From a virus (taxonomy: Duplodnaviria > Caudoviricetes), in the IMG/VR virus record IMGVR_UViG_3300032219_002765, positions 1 to 64,000 of that record: DNA of 64,000 nucleotides, one strand, 5' to 3'. Under the pieces are notes generated by a model, which saw only the letters and a program-made list of their open reading frames with translations, had not been told where the DNA came from and ran no database searches. Below, in pieces: positions 34,795 to 51,109 of this stretch; the stretch's first letter is position 1; each line of letters begins with the position of its first letter. A program made the translations under genes and the position numbers.

Positions 34795-35092
34795 CAGAAC
34801 ACACTGCTACCGATGTTTCTAGTTTAGGCGCAATCTGTAGAATATCGCCAGGTTGAACTTCTAAACTTAAACAAATACGCTCTATAACATCAGGAGACGG
34901 TATATATTTTTCGTCTGCGTATATTTTTCGTGTTGTAGTAGGCGAAAGAGCAGAAATTTTACTTAATTTGAACGATGAGACTCCACGGTGATCCAATAAC
35001 TCCCGCAAACGATTGACCAAACGACCGTAAGTTGTATAAGAGGAGTAAAACGGCATTTTATTAACAGTATATTGAGTTGTTTTATTGATCAT
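34772..35092 (-). CDS. Cro/C1-type (XRE) transcriptional regulator
   Basis: RLRELLDHRGVSSFKLSKISALSPTTTRKI...IERICLSLEVQPGDIL. Confidence 0.8.
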   Translation of the reverse strand: MINKTTQYTVNKMPFYSSYTTYGRLVNRLRELLDHRGVSSFKLSKISALSPTTTRKIYADEKYIPSPDVIERICLSLEVQPGDILQIAPKLETSVAVCSGVLASGL

Positions 35093-35418
35093 AATTCGTT
35101 TATTAAGAAAGATTCGTCCAGACCAGCGTTCTTAATCATAAAATTGCAGGCTTGAGCAGCTTTTTTAAAGTATTCAGTCCGGGGTATACCCTGTGTATCT
35201 GCCATAGCGGCGACATTACAGACCAAAGGACGGTCTTCGTAGATCGAACATCGGTTATCAATCAGCTTTTCGCAAGCACCAAACGCATCAGTCTCATAAG
35301 GAAAACTTTTAAATAACGCTTTTAACAAAAGATTATCTTGTTGATCAATAGTGGCCAAGATGAGACCGACATGACGGCAACAGAGGCCGCATTCAGTACA
35401 GGGAAATCCTTCAGACAT
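35089..35418 (-). CDS. YkgJ-family CxxCxxCC cysteine-cluster protein
   Basis: CTECGLCC...CEKL...CSIYEDRPLVC. Confidence 0.85.
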   Translation of the reverse strand: MSEGFPCTECGLCCRHVGLILATIDQQDNLLLKALFKSFPYETDAFGACEKLIDNRCSIYEDRPLVCNVAAMADTQGIPRTEYFKKAAQACNFMIKNAGLDESFLINEL

Positions 35419-35420
35419 AC

Positions 35421-36188
35421 CTAAAAACCTAGGTTTTTGCTTCTTACGAAATGTAAATCGTAAGTTGTAAAATCAAGAGGAATATTCGGATTATTAAAAG
35501 GCGTTCTGTACACCTCCCCTTCGACGTGAGATTGCCACGCGGGATTCCACTTAGCGTGTAAGTACTCCTTGTTGAGTTCGTGAGCCCTATGAATACCCGC
35601 AGCAAGTTCAGGTTCAGTACGCCAGGTCTGGCTTCCATCGTCGTAGTTTCCGCTCTTCTCCCCGTGGTAATAAGGAATGCCGACCGTCAGATGCCGCTTA
35701 AGCTCTCGATGCTTGAACCTCATCCCGTAATCCATGTCCTCGCAGTACCCCGGATACAAGTTTTCATCAAACAGACCGAAGTTCTGAACGACCCAATCTT
35801 TGATAAGAAAGATATCCCAACTTCCGTTCTCGCCATGAACAATCCCCGTCTCTGCGTCGCTGGCGTGTGCGACCATAGCGTCTAGAAAACCGGGCGTGAA
35901 CATAATGTCGTGGTTAACGATCAACCAATAAGGAGATCGCATAAACGATTTAATAATTAAATTCCATGCTCCTGGGCAACCTAGGTTTGCAGGTAAGTGA
36001 CAGACCGTTATTTTCTTAACGTGCTTATGCGGTACTTTTTGCAGAAGGTCTAACTCTTCTGTTAGTTCTCCTCGTCCGTTGTTGTTAAAGACAACAAAGT
36101 TATCCACAGGGTAATCAATGCTGTATAAAAGCCTATAAACCCAATGAGGACCGTTAACACAAGCTGTACCAATAACGGGAATGCTCAT
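35421..36188 (-). CDS. glycosyltransferase family 2-like
   Basis: NLGCPGAWN; LIVNHDI; GLFDENLYPGYCEDMDY. Confidence 0.85.
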   Translation of the reverse strand: MSIPVIGTACVNGPHWVYRLLYSIDYPVDNFVVFNNNGRGELTEELDLLQKVPHKHVKKITVCHLPANLGCPGAWNLIIKSFMRSPYWLIVNHDIMFTPGFLDAMVAHASDAETGIVHGENGSWDIFLIKDWVVQNFGLFDENLYPGYCEDMDYGMRFKHRELKRHLTVGIPYYHGEKSGNYDDGSQTWRTEPELAAGIHRAHELNKEYLHAKWNPAWQSHVEGEVYRTPFNNPNIPLDFTTYDLHFVRSKNLGF

Positions 36189-36232
36189 ACCCAGTCTAAA
36201 GCTGGTAACATATTAACACTGAGATCTGGGCA

Positions 36233-36934
36233 ATGACGACGTACTTCTGGGGTCCTGAGCAATCTCTGATCGTACCCACGCCGGAAGTGGCGTTCCTGAT
36301 GCACGATGACGATTCAGGTCGTTGTCAGATGCACCAAGTAGGAATCCCTGAACTGCCAATTATCGAGTGGGCTAAGCAGTTCGGATCAAAAGACAAAAAT
36401 TTTATTGATTGTGGCGCACACATGGGCGCGTACTCCATCTTGTTAGCAGATAGTTTTAAAGGAGTTTATTCGTTTGAAGCGCAGCGTCGAACGTATATGC
36501 AGTTATGTGGAAACATTTTTATTAATGAAAAAGCGAACATAACTCCCTACCACAACGCAGTAACCGATTTAGTACATTCACACGCAAACGTAGTTCTATC
36601 CGTTGTGTCCGAAGACGGAGGCGGATCGACAATCAGGCAAACGAAGCAAAAAGTACTAAATACAGAGTTAGTTAAAACTACAGATATTGATCACCATCGT
36701 ATTAATGATGTTGGTTTAATTAAGTTAGATATAGAAGGTAACGAATTAGCTGCACTTAAAGGCGCAGAAAAAACATTAGAGCGCTCAGGGTATCCACCGA
36801 TAATTTTTGAAGCGAACAACGATGACTGGTATGCAGAAGAGAAGGAAGAACTTTTCAAATATTTAACTAAGTTAAATTATAAAATCGTTGAAATTCGTCC
36901 GTACGAAAACATGTTTGCCGCTTTTAGTAGCTAG
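36233..36934 (+). CDS. FkbM-family methyltransferase
   Basis: FIDCGAHMG; FEAQ; LIKLDIEGNELAALKGA. Confidence 0.88.
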   Translation: MTTYFWGPEQSLIVPTPEVAFLMHDDDSGRCQMHQVGIPELPIIEWAKQFGSKDKNFIDCGAHMGAYSILLADSFKGVYSFEAQRRTYMQLCGNIFINEKANITPYHNAVTDLVHSHANVVLSVVSEDGGGSTIRQTKQKVLNTELVKTTDIDHHRINDVGLIKLDIEGNELAALKGAEKTLERSGYPPIIFEANNDDWYAEEKEELFKYLTKLNYKIVEIRPYENMFAAFSS

Positions 36935-37054
36935 CTTGCGCCCACAGCTCTTACCAATTACTGCTAGTAGAACGCGCTCGTTATAAGACTCATGAGACTC
37001 AATATGAAACAACACCGTTTTACCTGTTTTCAAAATCTTAAATAATTTATACAT
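36872..37054 (-). CDS. hypothetical protein
   Basis: ORF track. Confidence 0.35.
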   Translation of the reverse strand: MYKLFKILKTGKTVLFHIESHESYNERVLLAVIGKSCGRKLATKSGKHVFVRTNFNDFII

Positions 37055-37102
37055 TGCCCCGTTCTTTCGATGCGCTACAGTAAGCTGACGCTAGAAAATT
37101 AA

Positions 37103-37729
37103 ATGAGTTACCTAAATCACAACCTGCCGACATTTACTTGCTATATCCGAAACGAATTTCTATACAATCACAAGGAAGGACATGGGGATGTAACGTTGTG
37201 TGACGTGCACTCTGTAGCATCCCTGGAGAAGCGCGTCCCCCTGTTTGAAGTGTTTCTAGAAAATGGTGTTAATTGGACGCGACGCCCAATCCACGCCTTG
37301 TGCTGGAAACCCGATGCCCCTAAACCAGAACTAAATCAGTGCATCTGGTGGGATTGTTTTTCTCCGTATATTGACGTACAAGTTAGAGCACGACTTTCTA
37401 ATTTGCGTGCGCAATTAATTAACTTTAAAGGTGAGAAAAACGAGGGTATCTACATGTTCACCCTTGACTGGTCTTGGGAGTCTAAATCAATTCTCAATAC
37501 TAACTTCAGTGAGACGCCCGAACACAAGTGTGCACACTTCTTTCGGATGGATGACGGTAATTTTTATGCGTATCCAAACAACCGAATTATTTGGTATGAC
37601 GATGCGTGGCTTAAAAACAGAATTGAAAAAAATCCTGGATATGAAATTGATCTCACTGAGTACAGTGTTGAGAATTCTCGCAAGATAGAAACGTCAGATC
37701 ACTTTCTATACGAAACAACTGTCACGTAA
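37103..37729 (+). CDS. conserved aquatic-phage protein
   Basis: MSYLNHNLP...RNEFLYN...WTRRPIHAL...WDCFS...HKC...AYPNNRI. Confidence 0.65.
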   Translation: MSYLNHNLPTFTCYIRNEFLYNHKEGHGDVTLCDVHSVASLEKRVPLFEVFLENGVNWTRRPIHALCWKPDAPKPELNQCIWWDCFSPYIDVQVRARLSNLRAQLINFKGEKNEGIYMFTLDWSWESKSILNTNFSETPEHKCAHFFRMDDGNFYAYPNNRIIWYDDAWLKNRIEKNPGYEIDLTEYSVENSRKIETSDHFLYETTVT

Positions 37730-38597
37730 TAGGAAGAATGTAATTATAAAAAGTACTACTTAAATTCTGCTCCCAGCTGTTTGCAGGCAACTCAATAACA
37801 TTTGACAATTTTATATTACTTAAAACACTAAATGCAGGGCGCAGAATAAGTGATCCGTAGTCCTCAGTAGTCGTTGGTTCCACGGTGCCCAGCGTGGTGT
37901 ACAACTTGGACTTCTGCATAACATTTCGGATGTTTACAGCGAAGTCATACCAGCTCATCGCCGGAGCTTCCCCGTAATGAAATAAACCATTTGCATTCGA
38001 TTCAATCAAACGCCAACACACCAAAGCCAATGCAGTTGCCGACGTGGGGCGCCCAATCTGATCATTAATAATTGAAAGATCTTTTCCTCTGACTAACGAG
38101 TCAAAGATCGTTTTAAAGAAATTTTTCCGAAATTCACTATAAATCCAACTCGTTCGAAGTATACAATAAGCGGTTGATTGCATAATATCCTGGATAGCTC
38201 GTTCACCTTGTAACTTGGTGTGCCCGTAATAATTAATAGGATTCGGAGAAGCATCAGTCTCATACGGAGTCGACGCCGTGCCATCGAAGACATAATCTGT
38301 TGAAATGTGTAAAAGTTTTGATCCGGTAAATCCGCACGCCCAAGCCAGGCAAGTGGGGCCGCCGTGATTTGCTGTCAAAGCAGCATTCTTATCTGTCTCA
38401 GCTTGGTCTACATTTGTATACGCTGCCGCATTAATAACCCACGCAGGTTCATGTTGCAGAACGTAATCACAGATTTTTGACCCGTCGTAAAAATCAAGTT
38501 CAAATCTAGAAGGTATTAGAAGTTCAACATCATCCGGTTTCGAACGAAGTAAGTGCTTACCCAGCTGTCCGCTAGCGCCAAAAACCAGAACCTTCAT
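37722..38597 (-). CDS. rfbD: dTDP-4-dehydrorhamnose reductase
   Basis: GASGQLG; INAAAYTNVDQAE; HISTDYVFDG; PINYYGHTK; DQIGRPT; RPAFSVLS. Confidence 0.92.
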   Translation of the reverse strand: MKVLVFGASGQLGKHLLRSKPDDVELLIPSRFELDFYDGSKICDYVLQHEPAWVINAAAYTNVDQAETDKNAALTANHGGPTCLAWACGFTGSKLLHISTDYVFDGTASTPYETDASPNPINYYGHTKLQGERAIQDIMQSTAYCILRTSWIYSEFRKNFFKTIFDSLVRGKDLSIINDQIGRPTSATALALVCWRLIESNANGLFHYGEAPAMSWYDFAVNIRNVMQKSKLYTTLGTVEPTTTEDYGSLILRPAFSVLSNIKLSNVIELPANSWEQNLSSTFYNYILPIT

Positions 38598-38631
38598 AAC
38601 CGATCGGAACTGGCATCATGTTACCAGTTTT

Positions 38632-39090
38632 TCAGTGCTCAGGAAGTAAAAACAGGGTAATCCCTGCCTCTTTAAGCAAATCTACAGAAGTAGAGAAACT
38701 GTCTTTCCATCGGTCTGGGATGGGGCGATCTGGTGCCACGATGCGACTGACGCCAGCTTGCATGAGAAGCGTGCAGCAACTCGCACATGGGAGGAAAGGC
38801 CAGATATAAATCCATGCGTCTTCCAGACTTACGCCGTGGCGAGACGCCTGCGCAACAATATTGGCCTCCGCGTGCACAGTCCGCAAGAGCTTTGCTTCAC
38901 GATTTTCTAGGTGAATCTGCGTGTCAGCGATCCCACGAGGAAATCCGTTGTACCCCGTGGCCAAAATCCTTCGATCACGTACCGCTACAGCCCCAACCTG
39001 GGTTGAGGGGTCTTTACTCCACAAGGAGATATGTTGCGCTAAATCAAGAAAACGTTGATCCCAATCCATTAACACTCGTACAGACTGCAC
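38632..39090 (-). CDS. dCMP deaminase
   Basis: WSKDPSTQVG; TGYNGFPRG; HAEAN; PCASC. Confidence 0.9.
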   Translation of the reverse strand: MQSVRVLMDWDQRFLDLAQHISLWSKDPSTQVGAVAVRDRRILATGYNGFPRGIADTQIHLENREAKLLRTVHAEANIVAQASRHGVSLEDAWIYIWPFLPCASCCTLLMQAGVSRIVAPDRPIPDRWKDSFSTSVDLLKEAGITLFLLPEH

Positions 39091-39117
39091 TAAACTAAAG
39101 AAAAACTAACAGAGATA

Positions 39118-39903
39118 ATGAGTTGGCTTGACGATGCAGTTAAAAAAGTTCGAATGGCGGGAGAAGATCCCCTTATAAAGGCTCTTCTCGGAACTACAGC
39201 TATTGGAGCGTTAACGGACAAAATTCCTGTTGCACTTAACCCTCTAAAAACTCGCACACCAACAACTTCATTAGGAAAATTGGGTAAAGGAGTTAACCCA
39301 TTTAATCCTTCTAACGCTGCAATGCTAGGTGTCGGGGCACTAGCGCGTCAATTTTTGTCTCCTGATGATGCGCAACGTGTTGAAATGTTTGGTTGGGGGC
39401 CACAGGTAGGTATACTTTGGAATACCATACACGCAGGTGCCCTTAACGCTTCCGAAGATCAAGAGCTACAAAAGGCTAGAACTCAATATCTGCAGAGAGC
39501 TAACGCAGAAGTAGCCGCAAAAACAAACTTAGGTGCACCTACTCCCGCACCAATCGCTGGTAACCGAGTAGATGCTGCCACACCGCAGATCGGAAACCGC
39601 CAAGCAGCGCCGGTTCAAGCTCCCATCGTACCCCAGTTCACAGAAGCGTCTCTGCAAGCGGCAAACGCGGGCTACGAAGCACCTAGGAACGTACCTTTGA
39701 GTCAGTTTTACGGCGCACAGCAAGCACTGGGTCGTGAACTAGAGCAAACAGGTGAGCTGCAACGTCGCCTGAGAGAAAGTGGCGGTGGTTCAGGCATGAC
39801 GGACGAGGCACTCATGGCCTGGGCACAAAAAAATCCCGGACTTGCGTACCGGGAATTGGTTAACAGGGAGTCTCGCTCCGGTATTCGCCCGACAGCCGAC
39901 TAA
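39118..39903 (+). CDS. putative internal virion protein
   Basis: Shares WAxxNPxLAY motif with 14024..15529. Confidence 0.5.
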   Translation: MSWLDDAVKKVRMAGEDPLIKALLGTTAIGALTDKIPVALNPLKTRTPTTSLGKLGKGVNPFNPSNAAMLGVGALARQFLSPDDAQRVEMFGWGPQVGILWNTIHAGALNASEDQELQKARTQYLQRANAEVAAKTNLGAPTPAPIAGNRVDAATPQIGNRQAAPVQAPIVPQFTEASLQAANAGYEAPRNVPLSQFYGAQQALGRELEQTGELQRRLRESGGGSGMTDEALMAWAQKNPGLAYRELVNRESRSGIRPTAD

Positions 39904-40142
39904 TGCCTGGCAAAAGCCACGCGGGATGCACTCTCGTCTGAGGCTAAGTACGTAATTCCTGGTGCCCACTCTTCGCGTTTACCGGTGTTGTCGCACTGAA
40001 CAACGTAAAAAAGTGATTTAACACCCTTCTTATTTGTTTTTGTAACAAAATCCACGACGGTACCTTTTTTATTTGGGAGTTCTAAGCCCGCTGAAGGCTT
40101 TTTCTTTGCGACAACATCACCGATCTTAAATTTGGTCTTCAT
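39900..40142 (-). CDS. hypothetical protein (SH3-like)
   Basis: FKIGDVV...GTVV...YVVQ. Confidence 0.5.
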   Translation of the reverse strand: MKTKFKIGDVVAKKKPSAGLELPNKKGTVVDFVTKTNKKGVKSLFYVVQCDNTGKREEWAPGITYLASDESASRVAFARH

Positions 40143-40207
40143 AAAGTGCCTGGTAATTTTAAAAATGTCTAAAGGGCGCTGGCCTAACTCTTACTGAACA
40201 GAAACCG

Positions 40208-40576
40208 CTAACCATCAGAAGTGTACACAGGACACTCTGCAGCAAAATCATCCCCGGCTTCCGGAAAATCAAAGCCACAGCCAGATGACATCATATGAGC
40301 ACAGGAGTCACACGTAACTGAAGGAGTCTCAGTACGAGGAGTAGTGCACGCAACAGAGTGAACTTTAAGTTTGTCAATTAAGTAATTGATCAGCCGTTTA
40401 TTTTCAACAGCTTCTTCAAAAAACTGTTCGCTGACTTCGTGGCTTGTGTGCCGTTGATTGCATGATTGGCACTCTTTACGGCGCCGACGACTCTCTCTGG
40501 TAACCCTGGACTCAATTGTTATACAATTTTTCTCCTTACAAGAGGGACATTGATCGCGTATTTCAAAAGCCATCAA
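40208..40576 (-). CDS. NrdR-like Zn-ribbon protein without ATP cone
   Basis: CPSC...IESR...RRRRKECQSCNQRHTSHE; extra C-terminal Cys cluster. Confidence 0.7.
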   Translation of the reverse strand: MMAFEIRDQCPSCKEKNCITIESRVTRESRRRRKECQSCNQRHTSHEVSEQFFEEAVENKRLINYLIDKLKVHSVACTTPRTETPSVTCDSCAHMMSSGCGFDFPEAGDDFAAECPVYTSDG

Positions 40577-40825
40577 TTATTCTCTTTCTTACAAGCTGCG
40601 TACTCGTTTAAACATTCGTTTAAAGCTAGAACATAATCAGCAAAAGCCACGTGGGTATTCACGGCCTGCTTGTTTGGAGGAACCAGAGGAAAAGATTCGT
40701 TCCACCAGGCGCAAAAAAGTTCAGTGAGTTCTTCAGAAGTCATGGGATTAGTTTTTTAGCGAGACAAAATAAACCAACGTTAACAAGAATATATCCAAAA
40801 AATAATTCACAAGCTGTTGTCCAAG

Positions 40826-41068
40826 TCATTCTTTTTCCATTTCAGCAGCGAGCACTGCTGCAGACCGCAGCATTGTGCTTAGTTTAATTGGCTTCATATC
40901 ACGCCCATTGGCATAACGAATGCACCAGCGCACACCCATGGAGATGTTGCCGTCCCCTAGACGCCGAGCAGCCTCAATTTCTTCACGAGACAAACGTATG
41001 TTGACTGTAAAGTTAAGACCTTTGTTACGGGCTGCACGGTCTTTTGTAAAGTCGTTAGCGTTAGCCAT
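40826..41068 (-). CDS. small DNA-binding protein (ribbon-helix-helix-like)
   Basis: TVNIRLSREEIEAARRLGDGNISMGVR. Confidence 0.5.
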   Translation of the reverse strand: MANANDFTKDRAARNKGLNFTVNIRLSREEIEAARRLGDGNISMGVRWCIRYANGRDMKPIKLSTMLRSAAVLAAEMEKE

Positions 41069-41312
41069 GTGCCTCCAGCTCGTCGGCGATCATAAAAAGT
41101 TGGTTACTTGACCAATTAACTCCGGTTGATTCAATGTGCCCAGGCCACGGGCTTGTCTCACGTAAATGATCCGCAGCATAGCGAAGGGCGGCAACAGCAG
41201 CGGCCATGTGCTGAGAGTTTAGTTCGTAGAACTGGTCATCCAGTGCATCCAGCACTGCCTGCGCGGCGGTGGACAAGACCTTTTTCGTGGCGTCAGGAAA
41301 ATGGTCAGTCAT
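41061..41312 (-). CDS. small cassette protein (LSxAAQAV family)
   Basis: LSTAAQAVLDA...AAALR...IADELE. Confidence 0.6.
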   Translation of the reverse strand: MTDHFPDATKKVLSTAAQAVLDALDDQFYELNSQHMAAAVAALRYAADHLRETSPWPGHIESTGVNWSSNQLFMIADELEAHG

Positions 41313-41527
41313 TGGGCAACGTTTTCCAATAGTTTTTGCGCTGCTTCTAACAGCAATGGAAATTCCTCGGGATCCACTTCAATCACTTGGTCTTCTTGCT
41401 GTAAACGCAAAAAGTACCCACCGTCAGGGTCGCCAGCAAGTTGCACCCGAACGGCGCTGTGATGTAGTGGAAACGTATCAGTTTGAAAAACAGCAACGTC
41501 TGTGAAAATCATGCGATATTCAGCCAT
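41309..41527 (-). CDS. hypothetical protein
   Basis: ORF track; coupled stop/start. Confidence 0.55.
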   Translation of the reverse strand: MAEYRMIFTDVAVFQTDTFPLHHSAVRVQLAGDPDGGYFLRLQQEDQVIEVDPEEFPLLLEAAQKLLENVAQ

Positions 41528-41723
41528 TGGGCAATGCCTCCAAAGTGATCAGGCGAGACACGGTTTCAAACGCTTTGATAGCTTCCATAGCCTCAGACAA
41601 TTCCTCTGCTGCACCGTAAACACTATTGCAGGCAAGTAGTGCATCGGCTGCTGCTACGTGTCGAGCAAGCTTGGCGTAGATCAAGGCGTAATTAGGTGGT
41701 GTCATTGTTAGTGATTCAATCAT
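41520..41723 (-). CDS. hypothetical protein
   Basis: ORF track; coupled stop/start. Confidence 0.5.
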   Translation of the reverse strand: MIESLTMTPPNYALIYAKLARHVAAADALLACNSVYGAAEELSEAMEAIKAFETVSRLITLEALPNG

Positions 41724-41925
41724 TGAATTGCTCCAGTTCGTTGGCGATGGCTAGAAGTTCATAACGTATTTTGTTTTGCCTGAGGTTAGTCGACAAAGGG
41801 GTTACTTGAGTCGCAACAGTTCGCAGAGCGGCGGCGACTACTTGATTTGGAGTTAGCCAGTGGTTTGTTTCGTAATGGTTTACAGCATTTGCAACTGCCT
41901 GCGCGGCGGGGGAGAGGTTAGTCAA
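41716..41925 (-). CDS. small cassette protein (LSxAAQAV family), TTG start
   Basis: TNLSPAAQAV...VAAALR...LLAIANELE; paralogue of 41061..41312. Confidence 0.55.
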   Translation of the reverse strand: MTNLSPAAQAVANAVNHYETNHWLTPNQVVAAALRTVATQVTPLSTNLRQNKIRYELLAIANELEQFND

Positions 41926-42118
41926 TTGGAAGCTCCTCGTAAGAAAGAAATGCAACCCACTCAAGTACCTCAACTAAAGCTGGATACTTTCGATGAAACT
42001 CTTCAGCAGCAGCAATGTTAAGAGCCTTGACACCGTGCTCAAAGTCACTCTGAAGAGCGTCATTGATTCTGTCGTCAAGTTCTTTGATCAGTTGCTGGCG
42101 TGGGGAGAGGTCAGTCAT
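41918..42118 (-). CDS. small cassette protein
   Basis: MTDLSPRQQL start overlapping the upstream stop (ATGACTGA). Confidence 0.55.
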   Translation of the reverse strand: MTDLSPRQQLIKELDDRINDALQSDFEHGVKALNIAAAEEFHRKYPALVEVLEWVAFLSYEELPID

Positions 42119-42461
42119 TGGGCAATGCCTCCAGTGCGCGGCGAATGGTGTCCCCGAGTCCATTGAGATGAAGACAGTCGCTGGACTCAGCTTCATCCAA
42201 CGCATAAAGCGCCTGCTCCTTCAAGCTTGGCGGCTTGGGGCGGCGGGCGGCGCGGAGTTGAGGGTCCAAGCACCAGCCAGTGTTTATTTCTTTGCTCAGC
42301 CACCAACAACACGCCTCCAGCTCCTGGTCGGCACCCCAGCGGGCGGCTTGGGTGGCAATGTGATCCTCAAGTTGAATGTGTTTGACCTTGCTCTTATACC
42401 AGTCTTGGCGCCACTTATCTTGAAGCTCAAGCGGTGGGGTAATTGGGTGTTGGTTAGTCAT
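42111..42461 (-). CDS. small cassette protein
   Basis: MTNQHPITPP...AARWGADQELEACC...RPKPPSLKEQAL. Confidence 0.6.
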   Translation of the reverse strand: MTNQHPITPPLELQDKWRQDWYKSKVKHIQLEDHIATQAARWGADQELEACCWWLSKEINTGWCLDPQLRAARRPKPPSLKEQALYALDEAESSDCLHLNGLGDTIRRALEALPND

Positions 42462-44821: not shown

Positions 44822-44869
44822 TTTAAGTCTAAAAAGCAGTCTTGACCTCGAATTATTCTACTCGAACAA

Positions 44870-45130
44870 CGCAAACGGAAAAAAATTTTTAGGTCTCCCA
44901 CGAGGGAAAAAAATTTTAAAAAAGGCATCCTACCCCGTTCTGGGGTGGCAAAACTCAGTTTTTGAGTCATTTCGGAGGATAAAACCCGATTTTTAGCCCC
45001 GCGTGGAAAATGTCAGTTTATTAACATACAGGAGGTTTCGCCCCACTTTACCCGCAAGATTATGAAAGTGTTCTCGCCCACCCCGTCGATCAAAGCGCGT
45101 ATATAAAAAAAAGGGCGTTTTGCGGGCAGA
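44870..45130. other. non-coding strand-switch junction; candidate packaging (pac/cos) or origin region
   Basis: gaaaaaaatttt twice, A-tracts alternating with G/C runs; divergent transcription on either side. Confidence 0.4.
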
Positions 45131-45373
45131 TTGCGGCCAAGTTTGTTACACATAGCGCCAGGGGTTAGTTATATCGGGGTCCTATCACGTTTTTCCACAG
45201 GCAAACATTTAGTTTTATGTAGTTTTACACTTAGTGGGGCACGTTACAACTTTTTAAGTTTGCTTGACAAAGCGGCCGAGCCCATGGTATTTGCGCGAGC
45301 GGGCGCGGGCGCGGTTCCGTTACTAGGTGAGCTCGATGCGCAGTGTGCCAATCAAATCACTGACACAAATCTA

Positions 45374-45403
45374 TTGACGGGCGAACCACCCTGCGAATAC
45401 CTT
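45374..45403 (+). promoter_or_regulatory. sigma70-type early promoter
   Basis: TTGACG-18 nt-TACCTT immediately before the structured RNA. Confidence 0.55.
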
Positions 45404-45409
45404 TATGGA

Positions 45410-46160
45410 GTCGGAGGCGAGAGCCCCGGCCGAACCTAGACAACCGAACCAACCCGCGACGGCCGAACGGGCCCCGCGCCTGTCCCTGATGGTAGGGAGT
45501 ACCTCCCCGAAGTGTAGGGAATGGCAGGCATGGTGTGCCCCAACGTGAGCGGCGGGAAAGGTAAGGTCTCTAGGTTTGCGAACCTTGACAACAGAATAAG
45601 TGTAAGCAAGTAGGGAGCCGTGAGGTAACCGAAACGTACTGCGCTTGTTCTTTAATATAATTCCCATACAGTGTGGACAATGCAGCTGAACCTAAGTAGG
45701 CCATTGGATAAGCACTCTCCACTGTATGTCAGCGGGCATCTTGTCTTTAACTAAGGCAAAGTAGCGACGCTAAACGTCAGCAACTCTCGTCAGGTTGCAG
45801 CTGAATACAACCCTTGTCTGGTTGCAGTTAGTTACAGTTGCCGCAGATTCTATGTCCAGCGTACCTGTGTCTAATGCAGATACGCTGGCCACTGGACACT
45901 AGTACTTCACCACGGCGTTTCCGTGCGATGGCAGGACTAGTTATCAGCCAGTGATTCATTCTGTGCACTGTAACTAACTGTATGCCTGGCAATTTGTTTT
46001 AAGTTTCCTCAGAGAAGTTTACTCTGAGCGGTTGCAGATCTGCTGTAACTTGTCAACAGGCAGGATCAATTAAAGATCACATTGGATCATATATGATCAT
46101 GAGACTTCAGACTCTCTCCTGCTGAGTTTAACTAACTCAGCCCGAGGGATTCATTCTCTC
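45410..46160 (+). ncRNA. putative large structured non-coding RNA, class unknown
   Basis: More than 15 helices found by eye, including a perfect 14-bp long-range helix 45825-45838/45967-45980, nested multibranch junctions, a GAGA tetraloop, and G-U pairs that work only on the + strand. Confidence 0.7.
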
Positions 46161-46192
46161 ACCCTTCCACTTTGTTTCAACAGGTGTTAATC

Positions 46193-46438
46193 ATGACTGC
46201 TACACAAGTGTTACATTATTGCGCATCAAACGATCGCAACGGCAACCCTCAACGTTGCTACGTTCTAGTTGATGCTGACGGCAACAAGTTAGCTGCCTGG
46301 GATGAGGGATACGAAGGCCATCATGCTGTGCCCGATGTATGGCGGGATGCTGCATACGCTGCAGAGCGTATCAATTGCAGCATGACATGGTATCGTAAGA
46401 TGTTACGCACACTGCCTACATATCCTTTCTCACTGTAA
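46193..46438 (+). CDS. early hypothetical protein
   Basis: ORF track 46172; ATCATG start at 46193; ASNDRNGNPQRCY. Confidence 0.6.
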   Translation: MTATQVLHYCASNDRNGNPQRCYVLVDADGNKLAAWDEGYEGHHAVPDVWRDAAYAAERINCSMTWYRKMLRTLPTYPFSL

Positions 46439-46462
46439 TTAACTCACTCACTCTTTAACATC

Positions 46463-46786
46463 ATGTCCCTCACAATCAAGACTAACAACGTGCCACGTGA
46501 AACATTCTGTGGCATGTTAGCTGACATGTTTGTCGGCGAGGCTAAGGCTAATAAACTGCGTGAGCAGTTTGATTATCTAACTGATGAGGAGTTTGAAGTA
46601 ACCGACTTCATACAGTATCGCGGTTACTTCTATTCTATGGGTGACTTTATGCGTACAGAATCTAATGCTAGTCATGACCTATCTGGCTGGGATGGTTATG
46701 CATCAGATAGTTTCTTCAGTGGGGTATGTATTAAGTTTTACGATAGTCCGTATGGTGAAGTTATAGTCGGCACATATTACTGCTGA
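46463..46786 (+). CDS. conserved early phage protein
   Basis: QFDYL...FIQYRGYFYSMGDFMR...WDGYASDSFFSG. Confidence 0.65.
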   Translation: MSLTIKTNNVPRETFCGMLADMFVGEAKANKLREQFDYLTDEEFEVTDFIQYRGYFYSMGDFMRTESNASHDLSGWDGYASDSFFSGVCIKFYDSPYGEVIVGTYYC

Positions 46787-46800
46787 TACATATAACTAAC

Positions 46801-46845
46801 GGGAACGCTTAGTGTGAGCGGGGGATCGAATCCCTAGCGTTCCTA
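46801..46845 (+). ncRNA. tRNA-like minihelix (acceptor stem plus T-arm, no anticodon arm)
   Basis: GGGAACGCT/AGCGTTCCT 9-bp stem contiguous with GGGG-ATCGAAT-CCCT; 11-nt linker; A at the discriminator position. Confidence 0.55.
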
Positions 46846-46895
46846 TTGCCCTTCACTTAAATGTGTAGGGCTTTGTTCTATACCTACATCACATC

Positions 46896-47243
46896 ATGCG
46901 AGTGATCGAACAGCAAATGCTGGATGCAATCCGCGATCATAAAGATTGGCGGCTAAGCAATACCAGCGTTCAGTGTACACAATTTGTACACAGCGATAGA
47001 GTTATCGACAGGATCACAGTGTATCTGCATAACAGCGCGATCGCAGTGATTACTCCCACGGATGTAACTGTCTGCGATTGTGGTTATCAGACACCTACAA
47101 CTAAGTCGCGACTTAATGTAATACTGCGCGAGCTATGTGGCGCTGGTATTTATCAGAAGAATCATACATGGTTTGCATCTGCATTAGAAGAAACTGACTG
47201 GGAGATTGAATCTAACAGCCGTCATTGTTTCGTACGAGGTTAA
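46896..47243 (+). CDS. conserved early phage protein
   Basis: MRVIEQQM...VYLH...GYQTPTTKSRLN signature common in cyanophages. Confidence 0.7.
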   Translation: MRVIEQQMLDAIRDHKDWRLSNTSVQCTQFVHSDRVIDRITVYLHNSAIAVITPTDVTVCDCGYQTPTTKSRLNVILRELCGAGIYQKNHTWFASALEETDWEIESNSRHCFVRG

Positions 47244-47247
47244 CCAA

Positions 47248-47412
47248 ATGGCTTACTACATTCAACGGCGCGAAGGTGGCAAGATCGAAACTATTGACGA
47301 GATTGATGATAGGAGGGAGGCATACAAAGTGGTCAGGGAATATAACATTTCCGATCAAAGTGCGTTCCATTATGTATCAATCCGTGCATGTAAGTCATGG
47401 GCAAACCGCTAA
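47248..47412 (+). CDS. early hypothetical protein
   Basis: MAYYIQRREGGKIETIDE. Confidence 0.6.
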   Translation: MAYYIQRREGGKIETIDEIDDRREAYKVVREYNISDQSAFHYVSIRACKSWANR

Positions 47413-47463
47413 CGCGGGCCGCCGCACAGTTTACTTTAGTGTACACACATTCTCTTTAACATC

Positions 47464-47724
47464 ATGACCAAACGCAAAACAGTTAGTGTTGCTTACCTGA
47501 GAGATTGGGTCAATGAACGACTCACGTCGGACCACTTAACGCCAGAGCATAAACGTGGGCTGGCAAATGCACTAGATCAAGTGTTACATAACACTGGAAA
47601 CTACAACGGATTTGGCTACATTTACTGTGACGATGAGCGCCCATGCTTACCAGATAAAGTAGGCGCTGAGGCTTGCAATCCCAACTGGACTGAGTATCAC
47701 GAAACCCGTCGCTTCTATTACTAA
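47464..47724 (+). CDS. early hypothetical protein
   Basis: ORF track; ctctttaacatcATG leader. Confidence 0.6.
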   Translation: MTKRKTVSVAYLRDWVNERLTSDHLTPEHKRGLANALDQVLHNTGNYNGFGYIYCDDERPCLPDKVGAEACNPNWTEYHETRRFYY

Positions 47725-47728
47725 CACC

Positions 47729-47950
47729 ATGACTATTAACAACACCGTATCTACTTTTAACCCTGAAACTGTGCGGGAAGCCTATGCTCAAGAGATACTA
47801 GATGGAATGGATTACAAGACAATGGAACGTTTCGTTTATGACACTTTGTGTGACAACTTAACCTCTTATTCTAATGAACAACTAAAGACTGAGATTGTGG
47901 AGTGTTACGGTGAAGAATGGTTTGCATCTTTAATCACAAACAACAACTAA
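47729..47950 (+). CDS. early hypothetical protein
   Basis: ORF track. Confidence 0.6.
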   Translation: MTINNTVSTFNPETVREAYAQEILDGMDYKTMERFVYDTLCDNLTSYSNEQLKTEIVECYGEEWFASLITNNN

Positions 47951-47954
47951 CATC

Positions 47955-48167
47955 ATGAAATACACATTTCGCCGCCACGATGGTCGTGGCAAACGTTGGT
48001 CAGTCTATGCTGCTCGTTTTATTACAGATGTAGGCACAACGTATGCACTCGAATGGTTTGATACATACGAGGATGCAAATCAAGCAGCTGATGAGATGAA
48101 AGCAGATGGCAGATTCCGTGGAATCTCTATCTACTCACGCAGCCAAGAGACTGCAAACTTTAACTAA
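47955..48167 (+). CDS. early hypothetical protein
   Basis: ORF track; acatcATG leader. Confidence 0.55.
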   Translation: MKYTFRRHDGRGKRWSVYAARFITDVGTTYALEWFDTYEDANQAADEMKADGRFRGISIYSRSQETANFN

Positions 48168-50079: not shown

Positions 50080-50267
50080 TTCTATAGCTACAGGAAACGG
50101 GAGGAAAATTACGTTAAGTAATTGAGAACTATAAAAGATTTATATATAAGACAGGCTTGCCGAGCTAGCGTATTAAATTACTGTATACATCTGTGGTTAC
50201 ACTAACGCAAAACTTAAACTTTGCGGAGGTGATTCCACAGGTGGTGCGGTACACTTGATAAGATTGC

Positions 50268-50518: not shown

Positions 50519-50589
50519 CGGAACGTCTGATGACCGTTGCGTATTGCGCAACGCGCAACGCGAGTAGGGTTTGATTCCCTCGGTTCCGA
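50519..50589 (+). ncRNA. degenerate tRNA-like element
   Basis: CGGAAC/GTTCCG acceptor-like stem; AGGG-TTTGATT-CCCT T-arm; central CGTTGCG/CGCAACG hairpin; 71 nt. Confidence 0.4.
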
Positions 50590-50683
50590 TTTACGCGCAG
50601 ATATAGAGCCTGTATGGTGGTATAGTAGGCACAGGCGGCACAGAGCCTTTAACGTGGTGCGATCACATCCAAATCAAAACCCC

Positions 50684-51109
50684 ATGGCCATCAAAACAAC
50701 AGAGCTTGTGGCGCTAGCTGCCACGGCGGCAGAGGCTTACGATGAATGCGACACAGCTTTAACGGAGTTAAATCAATCCTTTGGAGTAGTGTACGAAGCA
50801 ACTAAAGACAATTTGTTGCGCGATGTAACCATTGCGTCAACACAAGGATTGGATCTTTCTGTATTCTCCGGAGAAGAAAGCCGCTTTAAGTTCCCTACTT
50901 ACAACACAAACATTGTCGTAAGAATTACACGCAAACCAACTCCACACGTAAAGCTGGATAAACTACTCAGTGAAGTAGAGCAGCTAGAAAAGAGGTTAAA
51001 ACTAGCTAAAACACGACTTAAAAACACTGCGGAAGAATTGGTGATTGCCGGTGAGTGTGATGAGACTATAGAGAAAATTGTACTAGCTTTTACCAGATTG
51101 CGTAAATAG
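50684..51109 (+). CDS. coiled-coil hypothetical protein
   Basis: ORF track 50537; likely start MAIKTTEL at 50684. Confidence 0.6.
   Translation: MAIKTTELVALAATAAEAYDECDTALTELNQSFGVVYEATKDNLLRDVTIASTQGLDLSVFSGEESRFKFPTYNTNIVVRITRKPTPHVKLDKLLSEVEQLEKRLKLAKTRLKNTAEELVIAGECDETIEKIVLAFTRLRK

Follow-up and report, generated by a model that had tools for sequence, protein, structure and literature searches.

A 45-nt element with the layout of the top half of a tRNA, designated E1 (46801-46845), was found in the early operon of this phage. E1 is a real fold. It may be a lineage-specific, reduced, and recently acquired tRNA-like processing module that carries a terminator or 5'-cap hairpin with it. 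This reading, which we put somewhat below an even chance, was ranked first because the fold is real, the minihelix geometry fits, and the operon demonstrably uses one tRNA-like RNA. The latter RNA, designated E2, is a mini-cloverleaf at the end of the same operon, and it is a genuine conserved structured tRNA-like RNA. E2 is the firmer result and a stronger object than E1, i.e., conserved, covarying, absent from Rfam, and placed at the early/middle boundary in a group of 75-87-kb phages. E1 would be a minimal variant of the tRNA-like processing signals; the evidence from E1 alone is thin, and a plain stabilising hairpin is nearly as likely as a processing module.

Genome and early operon

The virus record, from an uncultured freshwater phage, consists of 79,692 bp with a G+C content of 43% and is estimated to be 99% complete. 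The contigs used in the comparison originate from freshwater and sediment samples. The window, i.e., the whole stretch of DNA that was analysed, is its first 64 kb (64,000 nt). Terminase, portal-like protein, family-A DNA polymerase, and two tRNAs were found to be encoded in the record. The nearest matches to the family-A DNA polymerase were those of Pseudanabaena phages, at 28% identity. HIP1, a possible host clue, was present in one copy and showed no enrichment. ARAGORN predicted tRNA-Leu and tRNA-Met at 42.7 kb and nothing else. Neither an integrase nor phage tRNA-enzyme genes were detected among the 39 proteins scanned.

The early-type operon is composed of small plus-strand genes and extends from approximately 46.17 to 50.47 kb. 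E1 is placed on the coding strand in the transcribed spacer behind the second gene of this operon. The spacer is 109 nt in length and is the sole long spacer in the first part of the operon. The features of this region are given in Table 1.

Table 1. Positions of E1, E2, and neighbouring features in the window
Feature	Position	Strand	Description
Upstream early gene	46463..46786	+	107 aa; no Pfam family; stop codon 14 nt ahead of E1
Cassette, 1.17 kb	46787-47954		Carries E1, the terminator hairpin, and four small genes, Kyano_Gp96 and DUF7326 among them
TAACTAAC motif	46793..46800	+	Directly adjoining E1
E1 outer (acceptor-like) helix	46801-46809 with 46836-46844	+	9 pairs; first pair G-U
E1 unpaired linker	46810-46820	+	11 nt; 5' side only
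E1 inner T-arm-like hairpin	46821-46835	+	GGGG/CCCU around ATCGAAT
A at discriminator position of E1	46845	+	
Second hairpin	46848-46871	+	Intrinsic-terminator-like
T-rich tail	46872-46879	+	TTTGTTCT, behind second hairpin
Downstream early gene	46896..47243	+	Kyano_Gp96 family (PF23790, E = 1.9e-27)
E2, tRNA-like mini-cloverleaf	50519-50589	+	Covarying; unannotated

The TAACTAAC motif at the 5' side of E1 is repeated in the window, in 12 copies against 2.8 expected, and none of 100 shuffles reached 12. Five plus-strand copies are located in the leader or spacers of the early region, i.e., at 46793, 45971, 46129, 48161, and 51199. The motif was also found in the matching spacers of relatives.

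Structure of E1

The first-pass annotation of this DNA had described a 9-bp acceptor-like helix, an 11-nt linker without an anticodon arm, and a trailing A followed by a separate hairpin. All of these parts were recovered (Table 1). No unpaired base lies between the inner and outer helices on the 3' side. The inner stem pairs 46821-46824 with 46832-46835 and leaves 46825-46831 as the loop. Stacked together, the two helices of E1 amount to 13 bp, compared with 12 in tRNA, and the linker contains no free GG that could serve as a D-loop mimic. The 91-nt stretch at this site has a folding energy of -32.5 kcal/mol (z = -3.0), which was matched by one of 200 shuffles.

The same annotation had assigned the inner hairpin as a T arm with a T-loop, and this assignment stood in part. 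The stem, the ATCGAAT loop, its G:C closure, and the TCGA core (UCGA at positions 55-58) are all present, but position 54 holds A in place of T. Because of this A, the loop is self-complementary and a 3-nt-loop fold is predicted. The pairs A46825-U46831 and U46826-A46830 extend the stem to 6 bp in the minimum-energy structure, which closes on the loop CGA. The 3-nt-loop form is favoured at -19.3 kcal/mol versus -17.2 kcal/mol for the 7-nt-loop form, i.e., 2.1 kcal/mol more stable by prediction.

The chance level of such a fold was estimated with two descriptors. The strict descriptor called for an outer stem of 8 bp or more, an inner stem of 4 bp or more with G:C closure, and the loop WTYRANN; it gave 0.06 matches per dinucleotide-shuffled genome (6%) and two matches in the real genome. 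The loose descriptor gave approximately 1-2.5 chance matches per genome. A 7-nt loop satisfies the loose T-loop pattern by chance about once in 128.

The second hairpin has a stem of 5+3 bp in this genome and is followed by TTTGTTCT. This arrangement is that of an intrinsic terminator, i.e., a G/C-rich stem-loop and a T-rich tract. A consensus terminator scan did not list the hairpin, probably due to its internal mismatch. In the 95% relatives, two substitutions convert it to a perfect 9-bp stem.

Searches for E1 among known RNA classes

E1 was searched for as a member of several known classes, and these candidates were rejected. It is not a real tRNA; ARAGORN predicted none at this locus, and Rfam showed no tRNA match at E <= 10 in 46300-47300. 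Relaxed ARAGORN settings produced inconsistent calls only. No tmRNA was found by ARAGORN, and no Rfam family matched E1. A covariance model search had been proposed in the first-pass annotation as a check, and E1 was missed by Rfam as well as by the three models made here (R1, R2, and R3).

An N4-type hairpin promoter, with a 5-bp stem and a 3-nt loop, was also considered. It was rejected for lack of a giant virion RNA polymerase in the genome, whose largest ORF is 917 aa. To look for a host tRNA fragment or attachment site, a 22-mer pattern was run against 185,579 genomes, one per prokaryotic species. Nine matches, all attributed to chance and located in coding DNA, were obtained, and the complementary 5' strand accompanied none of them. 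As for a repeat or mobile mini-element, no second copy of E1 was detected in the genome or in the phage collection, and IMG/VR yielded one 95% relative. The other spacers of the early operon have no such fold, and E1 is therefore not part of a systematic punctuation of the operon; four complete relatives showed chance-level matches only.

Distribution and conservation of E1

E1 is carried by five contigs with flanking genes at 93-96% identity and was confined to genomes that are 95% identical or more. The sole change of E1 among these carriers is G to A in the unpaired linker of one contig. The conservation sample consists of three haplotypes, all 95% identical or more. The divergence at four-fold sites is approximately 5%, and zero changes in the 34 stem positions would be expected about 15% of the time. 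The invariance of E1 therefore carries no weight, since the neutral divergence is so low. E1 occurs only in near-identical relatives, too close for covariation or T-loop conservation to show.

As signs against its tRNA reading, the first-pass annotation had named a T-loop that is not conserved in relatives together with missing processed ends at the helix boundaries. The former is what the comparison gave, i.e., no relative below about 95% identity carried E1. It was missing from the region upstream of Gp96 homologues (45-71% identity) and from the region downstream of 107-aa-gene homologues (32-51% and 90% identity). Around the flanking-gene homologues at 32-71% identity, the neighbouring genes differ and this fold is missing. 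At the protein level, relatives of the 107-aa protein exist at 60-89% identity, among them two at 84% and 62%. A second IMG/VR scan gave nothing new.

The relative with the 90% identical upstream gene lacks E1 together with the next four genes. In this contig, the 107-aa gene (90%) is followed after 11 nt by a homologue of the gene at 47955. The missing segment corresponds to the 1.17-kb cassette of Table 1, and E1 is located at its exact 5' edge. Because this relative lacks E1 along with the four genes, E1 is dispensable.

Conserved cloverleaf E2

E2 was found in the same operon and on the same strand as E1. In this genome its acceptor-like stem has 6 bp (CGGAAC/GUUCCG), its D-like hairpin 3 bp, and its T arm 4 bp; the central hairpin is variable. 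The T arm bears the loop UUUGAUU here and UUYGAUU across relatives. The discriminator is A here and mostly A73 in relatives, and the C1:G72 pair is invariant. E2 is 58-85 nt in length upstream of homologues, at 58-78% identity, of the 141-aa gene (50684-51109).

The structure is strongly supported by comparison. E2 has 20 pairs, and compensatory changes were observed in 12 of them. Cells were paired at 98%, compared with 33-55% in slid-partner controls. Covariance model R1 detected exactly one E2 per genome in five complete relatives (75-87 kb), in addition to several fragments. The site is constant: E2 always follows the last early gene and precedes the promoter that serves the 141-aa gene, at the early/middle boundary. 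No Rfam family corresponds to E2. No E2-like element was found in the cultured Pseudanabaena phages PA-SR01 and Pam2, whose DNA polymerases are the closest at 28% identity.

E2 stands directly ahead of a conserved promoter-like extended -10 element and the leader hairpin of the next gene. At 50618-50661 on the plus strand, an extended -10-like TGnTAnnnT is followed by the leader hairpin GGYGGCAC...GUGGYGC, upstream of the 141-aa gene. Even relatives without E2 keep this pair of elements, preceded there by a clear TTGACG/TACGAT promoter.

In the closest relative, an IMG/VR contig at 95%, a 56-nt deletion has removed the 5' acceptor strand and the D-like hairpin of E2. The T stem of E2 also has a C-to-T change in this relative, and E1 is intact. 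The truncation of E2 alongside an intact E1 is compatible with some redundancy between both elements.

Comparison of E1 with E2

E1 and E2 lie in the same operon on the same strand. They have in common a GGAAC/GUUCC stem, a 4-bp G-rich T stem that ends in CCCU, and a trailing A-U-U. The 5' strands of E1 and of the E2 of this genome both contain GGAACG, and both 3' strands contain GUUCC. In contrast, the D-like and central hairpins, the invariant C1:G72 pair, the loop UUYGAUU, the covariation, and the wide distribution belong to E2 only. The loop of E1 deviates at positions that are invariant in E2.

A two-block query representing the top half of E2 was run against the whole 79.7-kb genome on both strands; the query was designed with both elements known. 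At a score of 25, E1 ranked first among the non-self matches to this query, and the next matches scored 23 and 22. In this two-block test, a score of 25 was reached by three of 100 dinucleotide shuffles. In a general gapped alignment scan, E2 was not among the top 25 matches of E1. The E2 models were built for the whole element (R1) and for the top half (R2), the latter from seven relatives with the window excluded. With filters off, neither model reported E1 at E <= 10. By these sequence comparisons, homology of E1 to E2 is possible; as a processing module, E1 would probably be derived from E2 or convergent with it.

Comparison with known tRNA-like systems

An acceptor/T-arm minihelix, with no anticodon arm, suffices as a substrate for RNase P and RNase Z and for the addition of CCA. 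The tRNA-like domain of tmRNA brings together the far-apart ends of a long RNA and has a G3:U70 pair and a CCA end. The tmRNA domain and synthetic minihelices resemble E1 in that an acceptor stem is stacked on a T arm with no anticodon arm. Intrinsic terminators and 3' stabilising stem-loops are also similar to E1, being G/C-rich and located right behind a stop codon and by a hairpin with a U-tract. However, these need neither a one-sided 11-nt bulge nor a T-loop-like loop, and E1 itself has no U-tract.

The t-elements of plant mitochondria are tRNA-like, non-decoding sequences near mRNA ends in polycistronic transcripts. They have been proposed to act in cis as signals for RNase P and RNase Z, and the transcript ends are mapped (Forner et al. 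2007, PMC1920247). These organellar elements are for the most part remnants of a fuller cloverleaf, whereas E1 is a 45-nt phage top half predicted from sequence. No report of tRNA-like processing signals in phage operons was found in the papers searched.

A matching layout was found in the cultured Mycobacterium phage Indlulamithi (accession MN585993; PMC8263002). In its genome, eleven unannotated tRNA top-half modules are located at 35034-42373, in spacers of approximately 90 nt between small genes. The order of each module is a stop codon, an acceptor-like stem (5-7 bp), a linker of 10-13 nt on the 5' side, a T arm (6 bp), and the 3' strand directly adjoining it. A purine, a small hairpin, a ribosome-binding site, and the next gene then follow. 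The modules have the linker AAYGGUUUUCG and the loop UUCGAUU. Model R3, built on five of the Indlulamithi copies, retrieved the other six (11 in all).

The order of parts and the linker length of these modules are the same as in E1, and the stack is 11-12 bp versus 13 in E1. However, Indlulamithi has 11 copies with an invariant GG-bearing linker, whereas E1 is single. R3 gave no match to E1, from which both the AAYGGUUUUCG linker and the UUCGAUU loop are absent. E1 thus resembles the Indlulamithi family in layout and is not recognized as a member by the model of that family. For the tRNA top-half reading as a whole, the minihelix geometry, the Indlulamithi-like context, and the presence of E2 in the operon speak in favour, while the failure of all tRNA and tRNA-mimic models to detect E1 speaks against.

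Possible function of E1

In the reading of E1 as a processing module, the tRNA end-processing enzymes of the host would accept the transcribed 13-bp coaxial helix, with its one-sided linker, as they do a minihelix. The predicted RNase P cut lies on the 5' border of E1, at approximately 46800/46801 or 46801/46802. RNase Z would cut behind the discriminator position, taken as 46844 or 46845. These cuts would divide the transcript into an upstream message of two genes and a downstream message. The second hairpin (46848-46871) would then either terminate unprotected transcription or cap the new 5' end of the downstream RNA. The fold, position, and strand of E1, its likeness in layout to the Indlulamithi modules, and the presence of E2 in the operon are shown; that E1 is homologous to E2, is recognized by RNase P or RNase Z, or affects the mRNA is inferred.

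A broader proposal, which we regard as rather unlikely, is that E1 and E2 are two punctuation marks of an early transcript that is handled like a stable-RNA operon of the host. RNase P and RNase Z would release a CCA-tailed mini-tRNA without an anticodon from it, and E1 would be the first example from a cyanophage, and the most reduced one, of a widespread phage tRNA-punctuation system.

E1 could instead be an ordinary strong bulged stem-loop that works together with the neighbouring hairpin, as a tandem terminator or a 3'-exonuclease block for the first two-gene segment of the early transcript, with a coincidental likeness to a T-loop. We consider this a substantial possibility. The minimum-energy inner hairpin is palindromic with a 3-nt loop, and a canonical terminator is located 3 nt further on, both as expected from such a stem-loop. 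The frequency of the T-loop pattern (about 1/128 by chance) and of the loose descriptors (1-2.5 matches per genome) agrees with coincidence, as does the fact that every tRNA or tRNA-mimic model misses E1. However, a stabiliser has no need of a one-sided 11-nt bulge and a 13-bp stack. The match to the acceptor and T arm of E2 appeared in just three of 100 shuffles, and the order of parts in E1 is the same as in the Indlulamithi top-half modules, which also argues for more than a plain stem-loop.

It is improbable that E1 is a decaying and functionless by-product, i.e., a copy of E2 or of a tRNA gene, stripped of its internal arms and brought in with the cassette. Its place at the exact 5' edge of a cassette missing from the 90% relative, its narrow distribution, and the departure of its loop from E2-invariant positions would suit such an origin. 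Against decay, both stems of E1 are perfect (15 pairs), and the only substitution among haplotypes falls in the unpaired linker, though the sample is shallow. Least probable by far is a trans-acting role of E1, excised and released as a stable mini-tRNA of 45 nt, for instance as a decoy for tRNA-targeting defences or as a competitor for tRNA-binding enzymes. Minihelices generally serve RNase P, RNase Z, and the CCA-adding enzyme, and the phage has two real tRNAs. However, the target of known anticodon nucleases is the anticodon arm, which E1 lacks. The 39 phage proteins scanned include no tRNA enzyme, and E1 has a single copy without conservation. The decoy role, which had been suggested in the first-pass annotation, received no particular support.

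If E1 is cut by tRNA-processing enzymes, the tRNA punctuation of mRNA, known from mitochondria, would extend to freshwater cyanophage-like viruses. In that case, 45 nt without the canonical T54 or the GG elbow would suffice as a tRNA mimic. If E1 is just a stabilising hairpin, the finding is an ordinary one.

Other features of the early region

Genes in this region have no Shine-Dalgarno sequences, and their starts are in the ACATCATG context. The 1.35-kb segment at 44822-46171 is without a long ORF and is locally G+C-rich. CTCTTTAACA-like strings were observed at 45646, 46448, and 47452. A long imperfect hairpin is located in the 188-nt spacer at 50080-50267; its arms (50188-50211/50220-50243) are 71% complementary, and the spacer folds at -50 kcal/mol.

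A further mini-cloverleaf of approximately 62 nt was observed in other IMG/VR contigs. It has a 7-bp acceptor stem, a D-like GCC-UGGC-GGC hairpin, a 5-bp central hairpin, and a 4-bp T arm with the loop UUCGAUU and an A discriminator. This structure looks like another reduced phage tRNA mimic.
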